Source: Promethearchaeota archaeon (GTDB lineage Archaea; Asgardarchaeota; Hermodarchaeia; Hermodarchaeales; Hermodarchaeaceae). Taken from it: 26,843 nucleotides of DNA. Numbering within the stretch: the stretch's first letter is position 1; the number at the start of each line of letters is the position of its first letter. A program made the position numbers and the translations under genes. Of this stretch, positions 1 to 16,609 are shown in pieces. A model generated the notes under the pieces. That model had not been told where the DNA came from. It saw only the letters and a list, made by a program, of their open reading frames with translations, and did no database searches. The stretch spans positions 1 to 26,843 of the forward strand of contig JBHLPH010000023.1 in assembly GCA_048939625.1 (NCBI GenBank), read 5' to 3'.

Positions 1-491
1 AGCACGAGTGTATAGCCATATCGGTACGGAATGCGAAGCGAGGTGAGAGCTGCAGCAAATCGACTCGGATCTGTGCATGCTACGAACAGCGCACTAGCGA
101 GGACGATATTGATGAGTCGGAAGGCAAGGTTGATTGCATTTGCTATTCCTGCAATAGTTATAGGAAAAAATGGACCAAAGCCAGGGGCTAGTTGAGGTAT
201 TAGATGGAAGAGGATGATACCATAAGGTGTGAAGAGAATTTGAACCAAAGCAATTAACAGAATGAATGTCAGAAGTCGTCGAAGCCGACTAAACGCATAT
301 CGAAAGCTAATCCCTGAACCAACATACGCAAGGAGTATGAAGCCAAAGATACACAGGGATACAATATCAGAGACTAAGGTTACTGTTAGTATAACAAGTA
401 AAATCAGTATAAGGAATTTTGTTAACGGATTGAGTCGATGAACAAACGACTTTCGCTGTAGATACCCGAAAGACGAGGTTCGCATTTTCAC
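1..491 (-). CDS. ecfT: ECF transporter transmembrane T component (EcfT/CbiQ family), 3'-truncated by the window edge
   Basis: Not in the ORF track. Manual translation gives (VK)MRTSSFGYLQRKSFVHRLNPLTKFLILILL...LFVACTDPSRFAAALTSLRIPYRYGYTLVL, with the typical EcfT 'S.lH.LnP..K' start and 'T.P..f..aL..L.IP' segment. It lies directly downstream of the double-ABC gene. Start is GTG 491 (GAGGAGGT upstream) or ATG 485. Confidence 0.9.
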   Translation of the reverse strand, partial: MKMRTSSFGYLQRKSFVHRLNPLTKFLILILLVILTVTLVSDIVSLCIFGFILLAYVGSGISFRYAFSRLRRLLTFILLIALVQILFTPYGIILFHLIPQLAPGFGPFFPITIAGIANAINLAFRLINIVLASALFVACTDPSRFAAALTSLRIPYRYGYTLV

Positions 492-492
492 T

Positions 493-2079
493 TTAAGATA
501 CCTCCTCTGTGATTTGCGATTCCGGCCAATCAGCTGTGGCTTCGACTTGCGCAATGTATTCTAGACCTTGTTTTATTGGAGCATCAAGTAGAAGGCGCCC
601 TTCGAAGAGGAAAAGAAGGCGGTGACAATATTGCTTAGCAATTGCGGTATCATGGGTTGCCAGGAGAACAGCAGTTCCTTGAGCTACTTCTTTCCGAACA
701 ACTGTCATCAGATTATGGACATTTCGATAGTCTTGCCCGATGAAAGGTTCATCGAGCAATAGAAGCTTTGGCTGATGAAGGAGGATAGAGGCAATCGTAA
801 GCCGCCGCTGTTCACCAAGACTCAGTGTGTAAGGCGATTGGTCCCGGTATGCATGTAACCCAAAGAGTTTCAGTAGTTCCATTGCACGCTCCTGAGCTAA
901 TTGCGGTTCTGGAAAACCAAGGTGTTTTGAGGCTAGAAGTACCTCCTCCTGTACTGTGGGAGCAAATAATTGGTGAATCGGGTTCTGGAAGACAAAGCCA
1001 ATACTACGAGCTAGTTGTGAAGCTAACTGATTATGAATTGTGTGACCTTGAAGAGATATTGAGCCTGAATCGGGTCTGAGTAATCCCATAATTTGGAGTA
1101 AGAGAGTGGATTTTCCTGAACCATTTGCTCCCATAAGCGCAATAATTTCCCCAGGTGGCACTGAGAATGTTATATTTTGTAAGGCTGGTTTTAGAGCGGA
1201 TTCTTCCTCGATGTGGGGATATGAAAAATTCAGTTGATGGATATGTAACATATCTTGTTCATACTGCGATGAGCTTGTGGTTGGGTCAGAATAGATTGAA
1301 AGATTTAATGCTAAGCCCAATTCCGTCAAGATCGTGGGATGGATCGAAAGTTGATTTGGTGTGTTATCATAACAAATAGAACCTTTGTTCAGCAGGATAA
1401 AACGGGAAGCTAAAGAGAGGAAAGGCTGGATTCGGTGTTCGATAACCAGAATCGTGATTCCTTGTTTGTGCAATGTAGTCATTGCTTTGATGACTTCGCT
1501 TGTGGTTTGTGGATCAAGTCGTGCTGTTGGTTCATCAAAGATTAAGATTGGGGAGCCAAGTCCGAGAAATGATGCGATCACGACTTTTTGTTTTTCTCCT
1601 CCTGAAAGAGTGTGAGTATTGCGTTGGTAGAGATTTTGTGCATTCACTGTCGTGAGTGCCCATTGAAGTTGTGCCTGAATTTGTTTTGGAGGGAATTGGA
1701 AGTTTTCTAGACCAAAGGCGACTTCATTAGTAACTTGAAGAGTAACCAGTTGGCTGTCAGGATCTTGTTGGATGAGACTAATTGAACGAGCTAAATGACG
1801 TATTGAGTGGCTTTGAGTATCATGACCTGCTATGATAATGGAGCCTTCAAAGGTTCCTGGATACTCCGTTGGAATAAATCCGGTGAGACAGCGTGCAAGG
1901 GTGCTTTTTCCACTGCCACTCGGTCCGGCTATAATGATGAATTCACCTGAGTGAACTTCGAAATTAATGTCTTGGAGGGCTGGTTCATCGGATCCTTCAT
2001 AGGCGTAGGTAAGGTTTGATACCTGTATACAGGGAGCAGGTGAAGCGGAGAGAGAGTTAGGAGATGACAAGGCTGACAA
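493..2079 (-). CDS. ecfA: ECF transporter ATP-binding protein, fused EcfA-EcfA' (two ABC domains)
   Basis: Two complete NBDs: GPSGSGKST/LSGGEKQK/IFDEP/EH and GANGSGKST/LSLGEQRR/LLDEP/THD. ECF-type 'QDPDSQL..EVAFGLEN' and 'FQNPIHQLF..TVQEEV' segments are present. The TTG start overlaps the upstream stop. Confidence 0.93.
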   Translation of the reverse strand: MSALSSPNSLSASPAPCIQVSNLTYAYEGSDEPALQDINFEVHSGEFIIIAGPSGSGKSTLARCLTGFIPTEYPGTFEGSIIIAGHDTQSHSIRHLARSISLIQQDPDSQLVTLQVTNEVAFGLENFQFPPKQIQAQLQWALTTVNAQNLYQRNTHTLSGGEKQKVVIASFLGLGSPILIFDEPTARLDPQTTSEVIKAMTTLHKQGITILVIEHRIQPFLSLASRFILLNKGSICYDNTPNQLSIHPTILTELGLALNLSIYSDPTTSSSQYEQDMLHIHQLNFSYPHIEEESALKPALQNITFSVPPGEIIALMGANGSGKSTLLLQIMGLLRPDSGSISLQGHTIHNQLASQLARSIGFVFQNPIHQLFAPTVQEEVLLASKHLGFPEPQLAQERAMELLKLFGLHAYRDQSPYTLSLGEQRRLTIASILLHQPKLLLLDEPFIGQDYRNVHNLMTVVRKEVAQGTAVLLATHDTAIAKQYCHRLLFLFEGRLLLDAPIKQGLEYIAQVEATADWPESQITEEVS

Positions 2080-3112
2080 CCTTTTCTACCCAATACCATC
2101 CGGGAAAATTCTTCGCCACAAGCCGGAGTCCATCCTCAACTACTAGGATAATTTCTTCATCGTTCAATATATCATCGAGGGAAAACGTCGCACTATATCC
2201 ATCTGAAGCTAGTACCTGAAGGGTGTTGGAGGAATTATAAGGCTGAGCATCGGCGAGAATTAAAGCGAGTGGGATTCCGGTGTAATTCTGAGGGGGAAGT
2301 TGGGTTACAGAACCGATGAGTTGAGCTTCGAAGGTAACCTCTTGATCAACGTATGCAAAGTACGAAAATCGAAATGGTTGTGCCACTTGTCCAACAACAT
2401 CACAACTTAGAGGATCAATAGCAGGGCGCCATACAAATACAGCATAAAGGCTAACACCGAATGTAATTACAATGAGAAAAATAAGAGCAGAAAGCCTATA
2501 CGGTCCAAGACGTTGCCAAATTGATCCTTTAGTTTTTTCACGAAGCCCATTTATTGAGGAGCGATAGATACTGGATTCTAGCACTAGTTTAGTAGTTGCA
2601 TGACCGAAGTAGCCACTAAAAATGATGCCTGATGAAAATGCAAGTATAAGCAAAAGCGCGAGGAATATCAGAGGTGCCCCAGAAAAGAAGAAGAGCTGAA
2701 AAACAACGACGTTGGAGGCGGAAGCAAATCCTCCTATGATAGCCCACATCGCTAATGAATCTCGTTGACCAATTGCATAGAATCCGACGTCTATTATGAT
2801 TCCTTGAATAAGGCTGACTAAAACAACGATTAGTCCGTGAGCACTTCCAGTGAACAATTCAACAAAGCCTTTTAGGAGGCCTGTGGCAGTTGCTGCTCCT
2901 GTTTTTCGGATAAGTCCCATCGCTAATATAATCCAAAAGACATGGAGGCCACTAAGAAACTGTCCAGCCCCGAATGGGGTTCCGATGGCAGTATTCAAAA
3001 GAAGCCCTAGATAACCAACAAAGGTGCTCAAGGCACCACCAAGCGCACTTAGTACTGCAATAGTAACTAAATCGCGTGTCCCAAAATAATAGGAAAAATG
3101 GTTACTGGCCAT
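2057..3112 (-). CDS. ECF substrate-specific S component (YkoE-like) fused to a C-terminal molybdopterin-binding-oxidoreductase-like (sulfite oxidase fold) domain
   Basis: The N-terminal ~180 aa are hydrophobic with S-component features (TRDLVTIAVLSALGG...LIRKTGAATATGLLKGFVELF.G...QGIIID). One more TM helix follows, then 'VVGQVAQPFRFS...YTGIPLALIL...VLASDGYSATFSL...GLRLV....PG.YWVEKVVSL', which resembles PF00174. RBS GGTGA upstream. Confidence 0.75.
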   Translation of the reverse strand: MASNHFSYYFGTRDLVTIAVLSALGGALSTFVGYLGLLLNTAIGTPFGAGQFLSGLHVFWIILAMGLIRKTGAATATGLLKGFVELFTGSAHGLIVVLVSLIQGIIIDVGFYAIGQRDSLAMWAIIGGFASASNVVVFQLFFFSGAPLIFLALLLILAFSSGIIFSGYFGHATTKLVLESSIYRSSINGLREKTKGSIWQRLGPYRLSALIFLIVITFGVSLYAVFVWRPAIDPLSCDVVGQVAQPFRFSYFAYVDQEVTFEAQLIGSVTQLPPQNYTGIPLALILADAQPYNSSNTLQVLASDGYSATFSLDDILNDEEIILVVEDGLRLVAKNFPGWYWVEKVVSLVIS

Positions 3113-3133
3113 TTTATCACCGTATATAGTTAG

Positions 3134-4732
3134 CTACGGAGGGAAACTATCTCGAATAATTTCAATTGTGCAGACATTTTTTACCCAACGGGCACTCCCA
3201 GACCCTGAATACCAAAGGGGATGTGTGGTTTGACTTGCATCATCATTACTATAACCTCCATCCGGTGCTAGAAAGGCTAGACGTAGCCCATCTACCCATT
3301 GAGGAACTATTACACCGTTGTAGCCATATGCTAGAATGAGATCCCCTTGAATTGCCTTTATCGAGCTGTTGGGATAGAGATTATAATAAGCAAATAATTG
3401 ATGGTATCCATCATTCGCACTCACATTAACAACGTCATCATCATCGATTGTTGTTATTAATTCAAGAATGACTGATAACGCAACACCCAAGTATGTACCA
3501 TTACCCCTCCAATTCCCTGATAATCCTTGATAGGCAGAATAGCCTTCAAGACTATCCATCAAGGCAAGATCCACCAGATACACTGTGTACTCTTCTGTAC
3601 CATCGATAATTTTCAGATACCCATCAATGTATAAATCAGCAAGAACTTCGATTGAAGCCACATTAGAAACCCAACGCGCCCCCGCACTCCCAACAAACCA
3701 AGATATGTGAGTTGTCTGATTGGCATCATCATTGCTATAAGCCCCATCTGGTGTTAGAAAGGCAAGACGCGGTCCCTGACTCCAAGCAGTGGGTAAAGTG
3801 TCATTAAACGAATAAGCTAGTATCAACTCACCTTGCACCGCCGCAAAGGTCGCATTCGGATAAAGGTTGTAATAGGCAAAGTCCTGAGAATAGTCGTCCG
3901 TCGCGTTCACACGAATTATATCGTTAGCATCAACGTTTGTTACTGATTTAATGACGTCTAATAGCGGAACACCCACATATGTGCCATTACCCCCCCAAGT
4001 CCCGGTTTGTTTCTGGTAAGCTGAAAAGCCTTCAAGACTATCCATCAAGGCAAGATCCACCAGATACATCGTGTGCTCTTCAGTACCATCAATTATGGTG
4101 AAGTGTATGGAGCCGCCGATGTAAGTATCTTGAAGCACTTCGATTGAAGCCACATTAGAAACCCAACGCGCCCCCGCACTCCCAACAAACCAAGATATGT
4201 GAGTTGTCTGATTGGCATCATCATTGCTATAAGCCCCATCTGGTGTTAGAAAGGCAAGACGCGGTCCCTGACTCCAAGCAGTGGGTAAAGTGTCATTAAA
4301 CGAATAAGCTAGTATCAACTCACCTTGCACCGCCGCAAAGGTCGCATTCGGATAAAGGTTGTAATGAGCAAAATATTGGGTATACCCATCGGTAGCATTG
4401 ACCCGGATTACATCATTCGAATCTATTCCGCCAACAAGTTCAACGATTGAGGCTAATGTCGTGCCAGCATAGTTTCCTCCACCTCGCCAATTTTCAAATT
4501 GATTCTGATAAGAAGAAATGCCTTCTGTGGAGGGTAAGGTGAGGAGCGTCGAGTAATTGAGATAGAGTGTGGTTTCTCCATTGATTACCTGGATATCAAC
4601 TTCTGCAGCTGGCGGTTGAAACGGGGGCGGTGATGTTAGGACGCTAATTCCAACGATAGCGCTAGCCGCGGCAATAATGGCTACGAGAACAATGACTAAA
4701 CCGTATTTGAGATTCTGATTAGATTCTGACAT
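3134..4732 (-). CDS. Membrane-anchored extracellular protein with three tandem molybdopterin-binding-oxidoreductase-like domains; putative substrate-capture protein of the ECF system
   Basis: N-terminal TM helix plus a Pro-rich linker, then three ~162-164-aa repeats, each with Y.G..L..(I/V), V.A.D(G/D)Y, ILAY..N, G(P/L)RLAFL.PDG and RWV.NV..IE. Many N-X-S/T sequons. First gene of the ECF operon. Confidence 0.7.
   Translation of the reverse strand: MSESNQNLKYGLVIVLVAIIAAASAIVGISVLTSPPPFQPPAAEVDIQVINGETTLYLNYSTLLTLPSTEGISSYQNQFENWRGGGNYAGTTLASIVELVGGIDSNDVIRVNATDGYTQYFAHYNLYPNATFAAVQGELILAYSFNDTLPTAWSQGPRLAFLTPDGAYSNDDANQTTHISWFVGSAGARWVSNVASIEVLQDTYIGGSIHFTIIDGTEEHTMYLVDLALMDSLEGFSAYQKQTGTWGGNGTYVGVPLLDVIKSVTNVDANDIIRVNATDDYSQDFAYYNLYPNATFAAVQGELILAYSFNDTLPTAWSQGPRLAFLTPDGAYSNDDANQTTHISWFVGSAGARWVSNVASIEVLADLYIDGYLKIIDGTEEYTVYLVDLALMDSLEGYSAYQGLSGNWRGNGTYLGVALSVILELITTIDDDDVVNVSANDGYHQLFAYYNLYPNSSIKAIQGDLILAYGYNGVIVPQWVDGLRLAFLAPDGGYSNDDASQTTHPLWYSGSGSARWVKNVCTIEIIRDSFPP
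3645..4365. repeat. Exact 229-bp direct repeat (3645-3873 = 4137-4365, offset 492 bp) inside the triple-domain gene
   Basis: Base-by-base comparison: ACTTCGATTGAAGCCACATTAG...GGATAAAGGTTGTAAT is identical in both copies. A second exact 42-bp repeat lies at 3541-3582 = 4027-4068. Confidence 0.95.
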
Positions 4733-4890: not shown

Positions 4891-5901
4891 TTATCGGTGC
4901 CAAAGTTCATCTCGTCGTTTCTTGTCTAACTGCGGAAGGTCGTGCCAGAAGATGGATTTGTTCTTGATTGGTGCAACTTGTTTGAGTTTGAAGACCGCCA
5001 TAGCTACGATGTTAATGAGAACGATGTTCATGAGAACGAGGGCAAAGCTCAGTCCGGCTACTCCTAACTCGAAGTAAAAGAGCACAACATTGGCATGAGA
5101 TAGTACAAATGCCGCATAAATAAGGTTCATTCCAGCGTTCACTGCAGGAGGCATTAATGATGCTGCGATAGCAACACCTACAAGGCTACCGATATCGCCC
5201 CGAGTCGCAGCGAGAGCCACGCCAGCCCCTGAAGCTGCGGCTACCACAACTCCTAGTGCTAATAGCCACAATGATGCCCGTGCAACCATTTCAGCGGTAG
5301 GCCAAGGCCAAGGCCACCCCGGGATGAGGGTCACGGGAATTAAAACAGCACCCATGATGAGACCCATAATGACTGCAATGAAAATACCTAGGGCTTCGTT
5401 CTTAATACCGGTCATCACAAGTCGTCGATCTTGGATTATTACCCCAAAGCTTAGACCGAGGATTGGACCCATGAGTGGTGCAAGAAGCATGCCTGCAACA
5501 ATGAATACAGGACTGTTAGTTGCCAAGCCTATTGCGGCAATGATACAAGATACGACGAGAAGGGCTAAGAAGTCAAAGGAGAGCCTTGTACCTGAGGCAA
5601 TTTTACTATAGATCTCTTCAACGGAAAGGCGTTCTGTTGGAGCAATACTAACTTGTTCTTCAGTCATTGGTTTGCTCGCTTCAACTGGAAGCACATCAAT
5701 TATGCCATAATGCACTCCGACACCAATGGTTTCCAGATTAGCGAGAATCTTTGAGCTCTTTGATTCAGAGACACGGAAAATAAGCATGAATCCTGGTGCA
5801 GTGTGAATCTTTGCGATGTTACGCACTTGTTCTTTCTCTTCGAGGAATTCCATTACTTGTCCGACTTTTTCTTCGGGGAGCGTTATCTGAAATTGACGCA
5901 T
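4891..5901 (-). CDS. DUF389 / TIGR00341 family membrane protein
   Basis: N-terminal soluble domain followed by 'IAAIGLATNSPVFIVAGMLLAPLMGPILG' and 'LVGVAIAASLMPPAVNAG', the DUF389 signatures. Confidence 0.9.
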   Translation of the reverse strand: MRQFQITLPEEKVGQVMEFLEEKEQVRNIAKIHTAPGFMLIFRVSESKSSKILANLETIGVGVHYGIIDVLPVEASKPMTEEQVSIAPTERLSVEEIYSKIASGTRLSFDFLALLVVSCIIAAIGLATNSPVFIVAGMLLAPLMGPILGLSFGVIIQDRRLVMTGIKNEALGIFIAVIMGLIMGAVLIPVTLIPGWPWPWPTAEMVARASLWLLALGVVVAAASGAGVALAATRGDIGSLVGVAIAASLMPPAVNAGMNLIYAAFVLSHANVVLFYFELGVAGLSFALVLMNIVLINIVAMAVFKLKQVAPIKNKSIFWHDLPQLDKKRRDELWHR

Positions 5902-13659: not shown

Positions 13660-16128
13660 CTATGTTTGTTCTTCCGAGCTGACTAGAGGTTTGAATCGTT
13701 GTAAAAGCAGAGCATTGGTTACTACACTCACACTGGACAAGGCCATTGCTAGTGCCGCCCACTCTGGTCGGAGGTTAATTATCGGGAAAAGAATTCCTGC
13801 AGCGATAGGGAGAAGGAAAATGTTATAGATTAACGCCCAGAAAAACCCTTGTCGGATTTTTGATACTGTCTTTTTTCCTAGTTGTACTGCCGTGGCAACA
13901 TCTAGGAGATTATCGCGTACGAGAACGATATCGCCGGTTTCTACGGAAACATCAGTGCCAGATCCTAGAGCTATGCCTACATCAGCCTGGGCTAGCGCCG
14001 GAGCATCATTGATGCCATCGCCCGTCATGGCAACCGTATGTTGTTCTGATTGGAGGTCCTGTATTACTTGCGCTTTATCACCGGGAAGCACTTCCGCGAA
14101 GACCTTTGTGATACCTACTTCTTGCCCAATTGCTTCAGCGGTCCGTTGCTTGTCTCCGGTGAGCATCACAACTTCGATGTTCATTCGTTGTAATGCACTG
14201 ATAGCCTGAGCTGAATGTGGTTTGAGAGTGTCAGCAATGGCTACAAGGGCAAGGAGTTTCCCATCCTTTGCTGCAAAAATGGTGGTTTTGCCGTCTTTTT
14301 GCAGTTGGGCAATATGTGGTTCCAGTTCCCCAATATCGACCCCATTTGCTTCCATGTAAGTGTCATTGCCAACATCGATAGTAGATCCTGTAATTGAAGC
14401 TCTGATTCCTTTCCCCGTTACTGAATCAAAGTCATCGATTTCCAGGAATGAGATTTGATTGCTCTCAGCATATTGGACAATGGCTTGGGCAAGTGGATGC
14501 TCGCTGTATTTTTCAGCAGTTGCAATGAATGTAAGGGCTTCTTGAGAATCTATGTCACCTGCGGGAATAATATCGGTAACTGTGGGTTTACCTGTTGTGA
14601 GTGTTCCAGTTTTATCAAAAACCATAGTGTCGACCTGCGGGATAACTTCGAGCCCTTCTCCCGTTTTGATAAGGATACCGAGTTGAGCTCCACGTCCAAT
14701 CCCAACCATTAAGGCAGCAGGAGTTGCTAGGCCCAGGGCACAGGGACATGCTGCTACTAGCACAGCGATTGAAAATCCTAAGGCTGTAACCCAGCTAAGT
14801 CCAGGATACCAAGGTGTGAAAGTAATTAGAATCAGCCAGATACTGAACACAATCACGGATAATAAAATGATAAAAGGCACAAATTTCTCGGCGATGGCGT
14901 CAGCCTTCCGTTGGATAGGAGGTTTGTGTGTCTGGGCTTCTTCAACCATCCCGATAATCTGAGCCAGCACTGTATCGGAGCCTACTTTTGTTGCTTCGAT
15001 TATGAGAATTCCTGTTTCGTTTAATGTTCCTCCTACCACTTCATCATCAACTTTCTTACTTACAGGGAGGGATTCACCGGTAATCATAGCCTCATTCACC
15101 GATGATTGCCCCTCAATGACGTAGCCATCCACAGGAATTTGTGCCCCAGGACGAACAAGAAGACGATCTTCTACAACAACCTCTTCAATAGGAATTGTAA
15201 ATTCTTCACCGTCTCGAAGCACAATCGCGGTCTTTGGTTGCAAATCCATGAGCGCCCGAATTGCTTGTGAAGTTCGACCTTTGGCTATGGCTTCTAATGT
15301 TCGTCCGAGTAAAATGAAGGAGAGTAACATTGCAGCTGAGCCATAGAACACTTCCTGACTCGGGAGTAGGAATGTTGCTACGACTGAGTAAAAGTAAGCG
15401 ACGCTGGTTCCAAGCATAATGAGAGTATCCATATTCGTTTTACCATGTCTTGCAGCATTTAGTGCGGATTTGTAGAAGGGATACCCACTATAGAATTGAA
15501 CGGGGGTTGTGAGAATAAATAGAATAACTGGAGGGATGACGCCCAGGGGGAGCAAAGGAGCAATAAGATTTGGAAAGAACGAAATGAGGACAATGGGAAT
15601 AGTAAAAATCACTGCAAAGGCAAGGCGTAATGTATAATATCTAATTTCTTGTTTGCGTGACATTGCTTCCCGATCAATTCCAGCATCCATCTCTGCGACG
15701 ATATCGAAGCCAATTGTCTTCAACGTATTTCGAACAGATGTTAGATTAACTAAGAGTTCATCATATTCGATCACCAATTGCCCAGACATGACTCGATCAG
15801 TCACGGAGAGTACTCCAGTAATTGCTTCGACTGTTTTCTTAAGAAATGACCATTCGTCTGTTCGAGGTGTAGGTGACAAGGTAAGCGTCATTGATGCTCG
15901 TTTCGGTGTATAACCCGTTGATGATATCGCTGCTTCTAACTCTGCACGGGTAATCTGATCTGGAATGAAATCGATTGTTGCTTTTTCTTCTAGGAGGTTG
16001 ACGGAGGCCTTTGAAACACCTTCCTGTTGAAGTAACGCTTTTTCGATTGTTGAGACACACGCTGCACAATGCATTCCTTTGATACGCATTGAAATCCGCT
16101 GGGTTTCTGGTTTTTCATCAGTGTTCAT
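13660..16128 (-). CDS. copA: Cu(I)-translocating P1B-type ATPase CopA
   Basis: N-terminal HMA GMHCAAC, TGES, CPC, DKTGT, SEHP, GDGIND, plus YN and MALSS Cu(I) transmembrane ligands. The ORF-track start 16293 overlaps PadR; the real start is probably ATG 16128 (GGTGA RBS) or 16140. Confidence 0.95.
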
Positions 16129-16147
16129 TTTCTTCACCATCCGATTC

Positions 16148-16609
16148 TCATGTGGAGTGTTCCACTTGTTCACGATATGCTGCCGCGCAATGAAGACAAC
16201 AAAAGGCGAGTTGTTTTCCATCGATTTCTTCGATATGTTCGCCTTCAAAGACTTTACACCCGCAGCTGGCGCATACGTGGAGATTCGATTCAAATGCCGC
16301 GGCGGTTATTACTGCGAAGCGTTCGAGAAGCTGCTTTACTTGGCGACGACCTTTTCGAGTGAGACAATATTCTCGCCGTGGTCGTTTACCTACTGGTTTA
16401 TTTTCTGAGGTAACGATTTGCTGCTGTTCAAGCTGTTGTAAGAATGGATAAAGTGTCCCTGCGCTGAGTGTCCGCCCTGTGCGGTTATGATATTTCCGCA
16501 TTATTCCGTATCCATGGGTTGTTCCTTCATGTAGGACAAGGAGGATGTATAATTTTGATAGATCATCCAGAACAGTATCAAGGGAGTGTTCACTCATGAG
16601 TTCCACCAT
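16148..16609 (-). CDS. PadR-family transcriptional regulator with C-terminal TRASH-like metal-binding domain
   Basis: PadR wHTH 'ILLVL...HGYGIM...[14 protein letters not shown]...RREYCLT.KG' and C-terminal CASCG...[13 protein letters not shown]. Alternative start is ATG 16597. Confidence 0.88.

Follow-up and report, generated by a model that had tools for sequence, protein, structure and literature searches.

Positions 1–26,843 of contig JBHLPH010000023.1 (assembly GCA_048939625.1), from an uncultured Promethearchaeota archaeon of the family Hermodarchaeaceae, begin with a minus-strand operon for an energy-coupling factor (ECF) transporter. Its substrate-binding (S) component and a membrane-anchored partner protein carry domains modelled with the sulfite oxidase (SUOX) fold. 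We refer to the whole stretch of 26,843 nucleotides as the window and to these domains as capture domains. The system is probably a dedicated group I ECF importer that salvages a molybdenum or tungsten pterin cofactor from the surroundings, its likely substrate being a metal-loaded form of molybdopterin (the molybdenum or tungsten cofactor, Moco or Tuco). The analysis establishes the architecture of the system, the fold of its surface domains, the linkage of its bacterial counterparts to riboswitches, the loss of cofactor synthesis genes with the dependent enzymes kept, and the phyletic complementarity between the system and cofactor synthesis; the last three of these are independent lines that point to cofactor salvage.

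Operon layout, capture domains and S component

Four tightly spaced, co-directional open reading frames (ORFs) at positions 3–4732 encode the anchored triple-domain protein, the S component, a fused double ATPase (EcfAA') and the transmembrane component EcfT (Table 1). With the listed TTG starts, the anchored protein and the S gene are separated by only 21 nt and the following genes overlap by 23 and 62 nt, and we therefore regard the set as a tight operon. Matches to PF09819, PF02361, TIGR04520 and TIGR04521 in four adjacent co-directional genes assign it to the group I (dedicated) ECF transporters, and the same order of the ECF cassette is found in relatives. EcfT is truncated as the window begins at base 1 of the contig; the full-length protein of relatives has 272–277 aa. 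An earlier note on this DNA, written from the letters and their ORFs, had described a four-gene ECF operon with three plus one related domains, and both the ORFs and the family matches bear this out. An Rfam scan of the archaeal window found no RNA element.

The anchored protein consists of one N-terminal hydrophobic anchor and three repeats of approximately 160 aa. In close relatives the protein has only two domains (370–398 aa), and the third repeat therefore looks like a recent duplication or gene conversion. A block of 229 bp is exactly repeated at 4137–4365 and 3645–3873, in the C-terminal halves of capture domains 1 and 2, as is one of 42 bp at 4027–4068 and 3541–3582, in domains 2 and 3. 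The residues Y, G, L, A, D, Y, W, V and V of the scaffold motifs are invariant in an alignment of the three repeats and the domain of the S component. The latter scores only 12 bits against PF00174, below the cut-off that the anchored protein passes. It should be noted that the first-look search of the whole genome with PF00174 missed the domains of the window, which are too divergent, and that they were found with a family-specific hidden Markov model on six-frame ORFs. Since the anchored protein has both the anchor and numerous N-x-S/T sequons (13, versus 5.0 ± 2.0 in shuffled sequences), an abundance noted earlier that held up against shuffling, the capture domains are predicted to face outside.

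The anchored protein and the S component each possess a single cysteine (at aa 521 and aa 237, respectively), in both cases elsewhere than at the position of the molybdenum ligand. Alignment with hhalign to the Cys-bearing SUOX protein of the same genome places that position at the last residue of a ‘YQN’ motif; it is occupied by Asn, Lys or Gly in the three repeats, with Asn as the consensus, in agreement with the earlier description of the domains as Cys-less. Domain 3 was modelled with AlphaFold (Table 1), and its closest structure in the Protein Data Bank (PDB), according to Foldseek, was PruR of Vibrio vulnificus (7kom, TM-score 0.78 by target). Further matches were SorA, sulfite oxidase, SoxC and YedY (E-values of 1e-6 to 1e-8) and the PruR homologues 7kp2, 7rkb and 7kos; only SUOX-family and PruR structures were returned, and the SUOX fold proposed in the earlier note was thus recovered. 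In the S component, modelled with a predicted local distance difference test score (pLDDT) of 85.6, the profile of the fused domain matched SoxC (2xts, E 1.9e-5, positions 264–352). The sequence profile of the capture domain returned from the PDB only a weak match to SorA (E 0.14) and not PruR, so that it is the modelled structure that points to a relation with the latter.

PruR has been described as a periplasmic, Cys-less and truncated SUOX fold that holds a pterin between Tyr104 and Trp160, with Asn102 hydrogen-bonding it (PMC11194511); entries 7rkb and 7kp2 contain the pterin. A D-x-Y motif is kept across the capture-domain family (D invariant, Y in at least 90%). All four domains of the window share a C-terminal Trp, which is also present in 26 of 27 fusions of the domain to a phosphoesterase described below. 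Judging from the sequences, these residues may correspond to the pterin contacts of PruR. The long type of the domain has, in addition, a conserved loop (consensus PDGxYSNxDxxxT), which is missing from the short type fused to the S component.

The S component combines a six-helix core, a basic linker (residues 181–200, of low pLDDT), a seventh helix (aa 204–227) and a 115-aa domain related to the repeats. In the model, the seventh helix is predicted to carry the chain back outside. The PF09819 match of this protein lies far above its cut-off (25.2 bits), and the membrane part matches YkoE (5EDL) both by structure and by profile (Table 1). Thiamine is contacted in YkoE by Tyr46, Trp49, Glu77, Gln95 and Asp131, of which the Glu/Gln pair hydrogen-bonds the aminopyrimidine ring, and the W49A variant shows no thiamine-dependent fluorescence quenching (PMC5037267). 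Profile alignment to 5EDL places Ser54, His57, Glu85, Gln103 and Gln139, respectively, at these positions, and only the Glu and Gln are kept; the Trp49 position is an invariant His and the Tyr46 position is Ser or Ala across the family. We regard it as extremely improbable that the system is an ordinary YkoEDC-type importer of thiamine or hydroxymethylpyrimidine with decorative surface domains, as the automatic JGI names (‘thiamin/hydroxymethylpyrimidine transport’) imply. The family assignment, the match to 5EDL, the YkoD-like fused double ATPase and the conserved pair E85 and Q103 would all suit such an importer. However, the replacement of Tyr46, Trp49 and Asp131 speaks against it, as do the riboswitches found in 23 bacterial loci, which are of the Tuco type with none for thiamine pyrophosphate (TPP), and a phyletic link that is to Moco synthesis.

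Table 1. Features of the ECF operon at the start of the window.
Feature	Position	Strand	Evidence
Membrane-anchored protein, 532 aa	3134..4732	-	ORF; PF00174 34 bits (cut-off 24); three full domain-model matches
Transmembrane anchor of the triple-domain protein, ~aa 10-32	4637..4705	-	Sole hydrophobic segment of the anchored protein, aa 6-36
Capture domain 1	4127..4603	-	Domain-model match, E 5e-64; four-domain alignment
Capture domain 2	3638..4108	-	Domain-model match; C-terminal half DNA-identical to that of domain 1
Capture domain 3 (modelled)	3149..3619	-	AlphaFold2 pLDDT 95.8, predicted TM-score (pTM) 0.90; Foldseek top match PruR 7kom
S component, whole ORF, 351 aa	2057-3112	-	ORF call; PF09819
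YkoE-type six-helix core of the S component, ~aa 1-180	2573..3112	-	PF09819 73.7 bits; 5EDL profile E 1e-14; Foldseek 5edl TM-score 0.79 by target
Seventh transmembrane helix, aa 204-227	2432..2503	-	Model helix; hydrophobic segment 202-232; after basic linker
Short-type SUOX/PruR-fold domain fused to the S component, aa 236-351	2057..2407	-	pLDDT >90; Foldseek SUOX enzymes and PruR
Fused EcfA-EcfA' ATPase, 528 aa	493..2079	-	TIGR04520 358 bits and TIGR04521 349 bits, both over cut-off; two ABC_tran domains
EcfT, CbiQ family, 184 aa, 3' end cut by contig end	3..554	-	PF02361 46 bits

Riboswitch linkage and loss of cofactor synthesis

The Moco/Tuco riboswitch (RF01055) was detected by Rfam in seven of 23 bacterial loci, in which no TPP or tetrahydrofolate (THF) riboswitch was found. 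It lies upstream of the cassette and co-directional with it in four loci of Bacillota (L057, L062, L081 and L082; 64–76 bits, gathering score 36), with no opposite-strand genes between, and adjoins the cassette in three others (L036, L053 and L056). The aptamer of L081 stands approximately 385 nt before the S gene and is followed by S, AA' and T; in L057 these are preceded by a two-domain protein and then a phosphoesterase, and in L062 by a phosphoesterase fusion and then a two-domain protein. In L082, a single leader precedes genes for a TupA-like binding protein, a permease, an ATPase, a MOT1-type transporter, the phosphoesterase, S, AA' and T. A riboswitch-controlled tupABC-like set also adjoins the cassette in L036. 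Stem P3 is missing from all seven aptamers, a form that goes with tungsten-cofactor genes (Regulski et al., PMC2408646).

Other genes stand beside these riboswitches. Just downstream of the cassette in both Anoxynatronum loci (L053 and L056, 12233–13016), a P3-less riboswitch precedes a small S component (PF12822, 178 aa), which belongs to a different ECF family and might also be related to a cofactor. A second P3-less riboswitch follows the ECF operon of L082 (10489–11669) and precedes a 316-aa dockerin-domain protein, an unusual member of a Moco/Tuco regulon.

The same loci prompt the question of whether the metal alone is taken up, with the surface domains and the phosphoesterase-like module binding tungstate or molybdate and the ECF part importing it. 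Dinuclear phosphoesterases bind both oxyanions as phosphate analogues, and the cassette is found beside tupABC-like genes. Metal transporters are, moreover, commonly controlled by Tuco/Moco riboswitches (PMC2408646). Nevertheless, a metal importer is very unlikely: it would be expected to co-occur with MoeA and pterin synthesis, whereas the Asgard system is mutually exclusive with MoeA and MoaC, and the association with MoaC is negative in Thermoplasmata as well. Furthermore, the L082 operon already has two oxyanion transporters, the phosphoesterase keeps every catalytic motif, and the nearest relatives of the capture fold bind pterins.

In the host genome (87.6% complete), neither MoaC, MoeA_N and MoaE nor the C-terminal domain of MoaA was found, and the same is true of a MogA/MoaB-type protein and of homologues of ModA/WtpA, TupA and MOT1. 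Two candidates were rejected: the lone PF00994 protein is CinA-like according to NCBIfam and was not accepted as MogA/MoaB, and a PF13531 match was not accepted as ModA/WtpA, since it is weak, partial and located in a binding protein of the phosphonate type. What the genome keeps is a MobA-like gene, FwdB (518 bits, on another contig than the window), a second FwdB-like protein, a formate dehydrogenase (FDH)-like enzyme of the bis-pyranopterin guanine dinucleotide (bis-PGD) type, the Cys-bearing SUOX protein mentioned above and ten matches to the aldehyde ferredoxin oxidoreductase (AOR) family. Adjacent genes for MptA (222 bits) and an MptE-like protein (97 bits) are also kept, and the loss is therefore specific to the Moco branch of pterin synthesis.

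The retained pair bears on the option that another pterin is scavenged, either a methanopterin or folate precursor, much as the earlier note had raised, or one of the monapterin/neopterin type. Genes of the tetrahydromethanopterin (H4MPT) pathway lie nearby in the window, and small reduced pterins are the ligands of PruR, the closest structure (PMC11194511). Nonetheless, such a substrate is highly improbable, as the non-Moco pterin branch is present in the host, the fwd/ftr synteny is confined to close relatives, the bacterial riboswitches are of the Moco/Tuco class with no THF riboswitch seen in 23 loci, and the complementarity described below is with Moco-specific genes.

We surveyed 151 Asgard genomes of at least 80% completeness, of which 38 have a full-length S fusion, 68 have MoaC and 72 have MoeA. 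No carrier of the S fusion has MoaC and only one has MoeA (G080, where it is on a contig edge), compared with 68 MoaC-bearing genomes among the 113 non-carriers (Fisher p ~1e-12 for S fusion versus MoaC, with the related genomes not being independent). The switch between S fusion and MoaC occurs within four genera (g1, g31, g36 and g50). Eight of the nine genomes of the genus of the window have the system and lack both MoaC and MoeA; the ninth (G063) has both genes and neither the S fusion nor a capture domain. AOR genes are present in 147 of the 151 genomes, and demand for the cofactor is therefore general. MoaC is also lacking in two closed archaeal chromosomes that carry the system. Across 121 Thermoplasmata genomes the pattern is the same, although weaker than in Asgard archaea, with MoaC in 4/21 carriers versus 66/100 non-carriers. 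One closed Thermoplasmata chromosome with the ECF system (G156:C1:608214-608465) has only a partial match to MoaC (profile positions 62–136, 50 bits), which may be the remnant of a lost gene. In the gene profile suggested in the earlier note, the system and the Moco synthesis genes were mutually exclusive in Asgard genomes, with MptA and the MptE-like gene retained in the host. The central idea of that note, a pterin-binding fold repurposed as a surface capture domain with Moco or its tungsten form named first, gains support from the modelled likeness to PruR, the Tuco-type riboswitches and the mutual exclusion in Asgard archaea.

The missing genes also bear on the form of the ligand. Because MoaE and MoeA are lacking and MobA is kept, the species imported by the Asgard carriers is most likely metal-loaded molybdopterin. 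It is unlikely that a pathway precursor, either cyclic pyranopterin monophosphate (cPMP) or metal-free molybdopterin (MPT), is imported and completed in the cell. cPMP is the most stable intermediate of the pathway, the bacterial genomes with a riboswitch-linked cassette keep MoaC and MoeA, and co-transcription of the L082 cassette with tungstate/molybdate transporter genes would be sensible if the metal were added inside the cell. Against this, MoeA is lacking in 37 of the 38 Asgard carriers, and the host, without MoaE and proteins of the MogA/MoaB, ModA/WtpA, TupA and MOT1 types, would be unable to turn cPMP into MPT or to add the metal.

Several observations weigh against the salvage of a finished cofactor. 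Moco that is not bound to protein is very labile, and how much of it sediments offer is uncertain. For PruR, the pocket is reported to be truncated and unlikely to accommodate full Moco (PMC11194511; PMC13259868). The closest structure would thus point to a smaller pterin, provided that the site is not lengthened by the conserved loop PDGxYSNxDxxxT specific to the capture-domain family. MoaC and MoeA are kept in all five bacterial genomes checked that have the riboswitch in or beside the locus, where salvage therefore coexists with synthesis, and in 3 of the 21 Thermoplasmata carriers; the system accordingly does not always replace synthesis. Approximately 30 Asgard genomes, mostly of family f9, have several AOR genes and none of MoaC, MoeA, S fusion or capture domain, so that another route to the cofactor must exist. 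Finally, most of the genomes are metagenome-assembled and, as MoaC and MoeA of G063 lie on one contig, one missing contig could mimic the loss in any single genome.

Family spread, phosphoesterase partner and neighbouring genes

More than 450 homologues of the fusion between S component and capture domain were found, and the genome scan yielded 261 loci in Asgard archaea, in Thermoplasmata/Methanomassiliicoccales, and in anaerobic Bacillota, among them Syntrophomonas, Pelotomaculum, Syntrophaceticus, Dethiobacteria and the cultured Anoxynatronum. An exhaustive HMMER search with domain 3 gave 177 cluster representatives, which comprise anchored single domains, proteins with 2–5 repeats and proteins of approximately 520 aa with a C-terminal capture domain. 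The members of the last group that were checked are fusions to a calcineurin-type phosphoesterase. In operons of Thorarchaeota and Bacillota, the phosphoesterase fusion gene is located directly upstream of the S gene; in the host genome it is unlinked (C51:32064-33644) and shares 37% identity over 500 aa with the operon gene of Syntrophaceticus. The fusion is probably an active enzyme, given that its metal-ligand motifs (GD, GD, GNHD, H and GHxH) all show a conservation of at least 90% in the 27 fusions compared.

We infer the identity and form of the ligand, its hand-over between domains, the substrate of the phosphoesterase and the direction of transport, and propose the following route. Cys-less SUOX-fold domains tethered at the surface, three on the anchored protein and one on the S component behind its extra helix, would capture the pterin cofactor. 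The surface metallophosphoesterase fused to the same domain would probably trim nucleotide or phosphate-ester forms, for instance by releasing guanosine monophosphate (GMP) from molybdopterin guanine dinucleotide (MGD). The ligand would then pass to the YkoE-type S component, which keeps the Glu/Gln pair known to bond an aminopyrimidine, and EcfAA'T would drive uptake. Inside the cell, MobA would rebuild the dinucleotide form for FwdB- and FDH-type enzymes, while AOR-family tungsten enzymes hold a non-nucleotide pterin cofactor.

In Asgard family f4, most genomes yielded no match to MoaC, MoeA or the ECF fusion. Here a 338-aa capture-domain protein, which scores 26 bits against PF00174, overlaps the start of two exporter-fold ABC half-transporters of 656 and 627 aa, each with ABC_membrane and ABC_tran domains (L094:861-5721 and L095:4862-9722). 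Such a capture-domain protein is present in 15 of 17 genomes of this family, and both of its MoaC-bearing genomes lack it. The half-transporter pair may have been recruited as a second type of transporter for this substrate. Genes directly after the bacterial EcfT may likewise be further parts of the system: a 241-aa protein with a weak match to APH-like phosphotransferases in Syntrophomonas (L036:4432-5157) and two proteins of 326 and 187 aa without a Pfam family in Anoxynatronum (L053:10492-12032).

Further along the window, fwdA, ftr, fwdC and mch are present as the earlier note had stated. Their use as a functional argument did not stand, and they were rejected as such evidence, since the synteny occurs in close relatives only and neither Thorarchaeota nor the Bacillota locus has it. 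A DUF389/TIGR00341 membrane protein is encoded between the operon and fwdA (4891–5901), at the same place in a relative with 72% identity (L003) and not in more distant loci. Elsewhere in the window, a PadR-TRASH regulator adjoins a CopA-type P-type ATPase with an HMA domain (13660–16609).

Comparison with known systems and significance

The capture domains share the Moco-binding-domain fold and the scaffold motifs with the SUOX molybdoenzymes (sulfite oxidase, SorA, SoxC and MsrP/YedY; PF00174). They differ from these enzymes in being without the Mo-ligand Cys, the dimerisation domain and the haem domain, and no Tat signal was noted. As the genome cannot make the cofactor, they are unlikely to be enzymes themselves. 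PruR (Agrobacterium, Vibrio and Klebsiella) is likewise a small, secreted, degenerate and Cys-less SUOX fold outside the cytoplasmic membrane, with a Tyr and a C-terminal Trp in motif positions that may be comparable. However, PruR acts in Proteobacteria as a partner of the DcpA cyclase/phosphodiesterase in signalling, and it has no transporter link. It has Pro-Trp at the former Cys position, whereas the capture-domain family has Asn (consensus Y-Q-N), an extra conserved loop of approximately 35 residues, tandem repeats and fusions, and hosts among archaea and Bacillota. Significant sequence similarity to PruR was not found, and near the capture-domain genes of the window there is no GGDEF/EAL gene, the neighbours being the ECF genes.

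With YkoEDC, the group I ECF thiamine transporter of Bacillus subtilis, the system shares the PF09819 S component, the fused double ATPase, the CbiQ-type T component, the dedicated operon and the Glu/Gln pair. What it has in addition to YkoEDC is the seventh helix, the extracytoplasmic SUOX-fold domain fused behind that helix, the accessory capture proteins and the surface phosphoesterase. An invariant His takes the place of Trp49, and its bacterial cassettes stand behind Tuco/Moco rather than TPP riboswitches. The machinery is of the known group I ECF kind; it is set apart by its tethered capture domains, the phosphoesterase fusion and the proposed substrate. For NAD, the surface nucleotidase NadN trims a nucleotide-linked cofactor before the dedicated importer PnuC takes over. 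The logic proposed here is alike, but the enzyme, transporter and substrate families differ, and here the enzyme is fused to a copy of the capture domain.

Full-text literature searches found no prokaryotic importer of Moco or of a pterin, only dietary uptake by nematodes and a speculative remark concerning the type 11 secretion system (T11SS). How pterins cross membranes is stated as unknown in a 2026 review (PMC13259868), and among the uptake systems catalogued in a survey of riboswitch regulons, which serve B12, thiamin, riboflavin, queuosine and folate, there is none for Moco (PMC3766115). We tentatively raise a wider possibility: the finished Mo/W cofactor would here have its first prokaryotic uptake system, and whole Asgard and Thermoplasmata lineages may have discarded Moco biosynthesis and rely on cofactor that neighbours release. 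The substrate would then be defined by the capture module, with its Cys-less SUOX fold and frequent fusion to the phosphoesterase, and this module would have been coupled independently to two unrelated transporters, the YkoE-type ECF and, in another Asgard family, the exporter-fold ABC half-transporters.

Moco is generally presented as a cofactor that each cell has to synthesise. If the proposed salvage is true, it would account for the absence of the whole biosynthetic pathway from genomes that encode FwdB and ten AOR-type tungsten enzymes, and would provide an example of an ECF transporter that uses tethered extracytoplasmic binding domains. The capture domains might also serve as handles to stabilise or deliver Moco. 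Uptake of this kind would represent a new metabolic dependency in the syntrophic lifestyle of Asgard archaea and a testable route for the exchange of Moco in anoxic communities.

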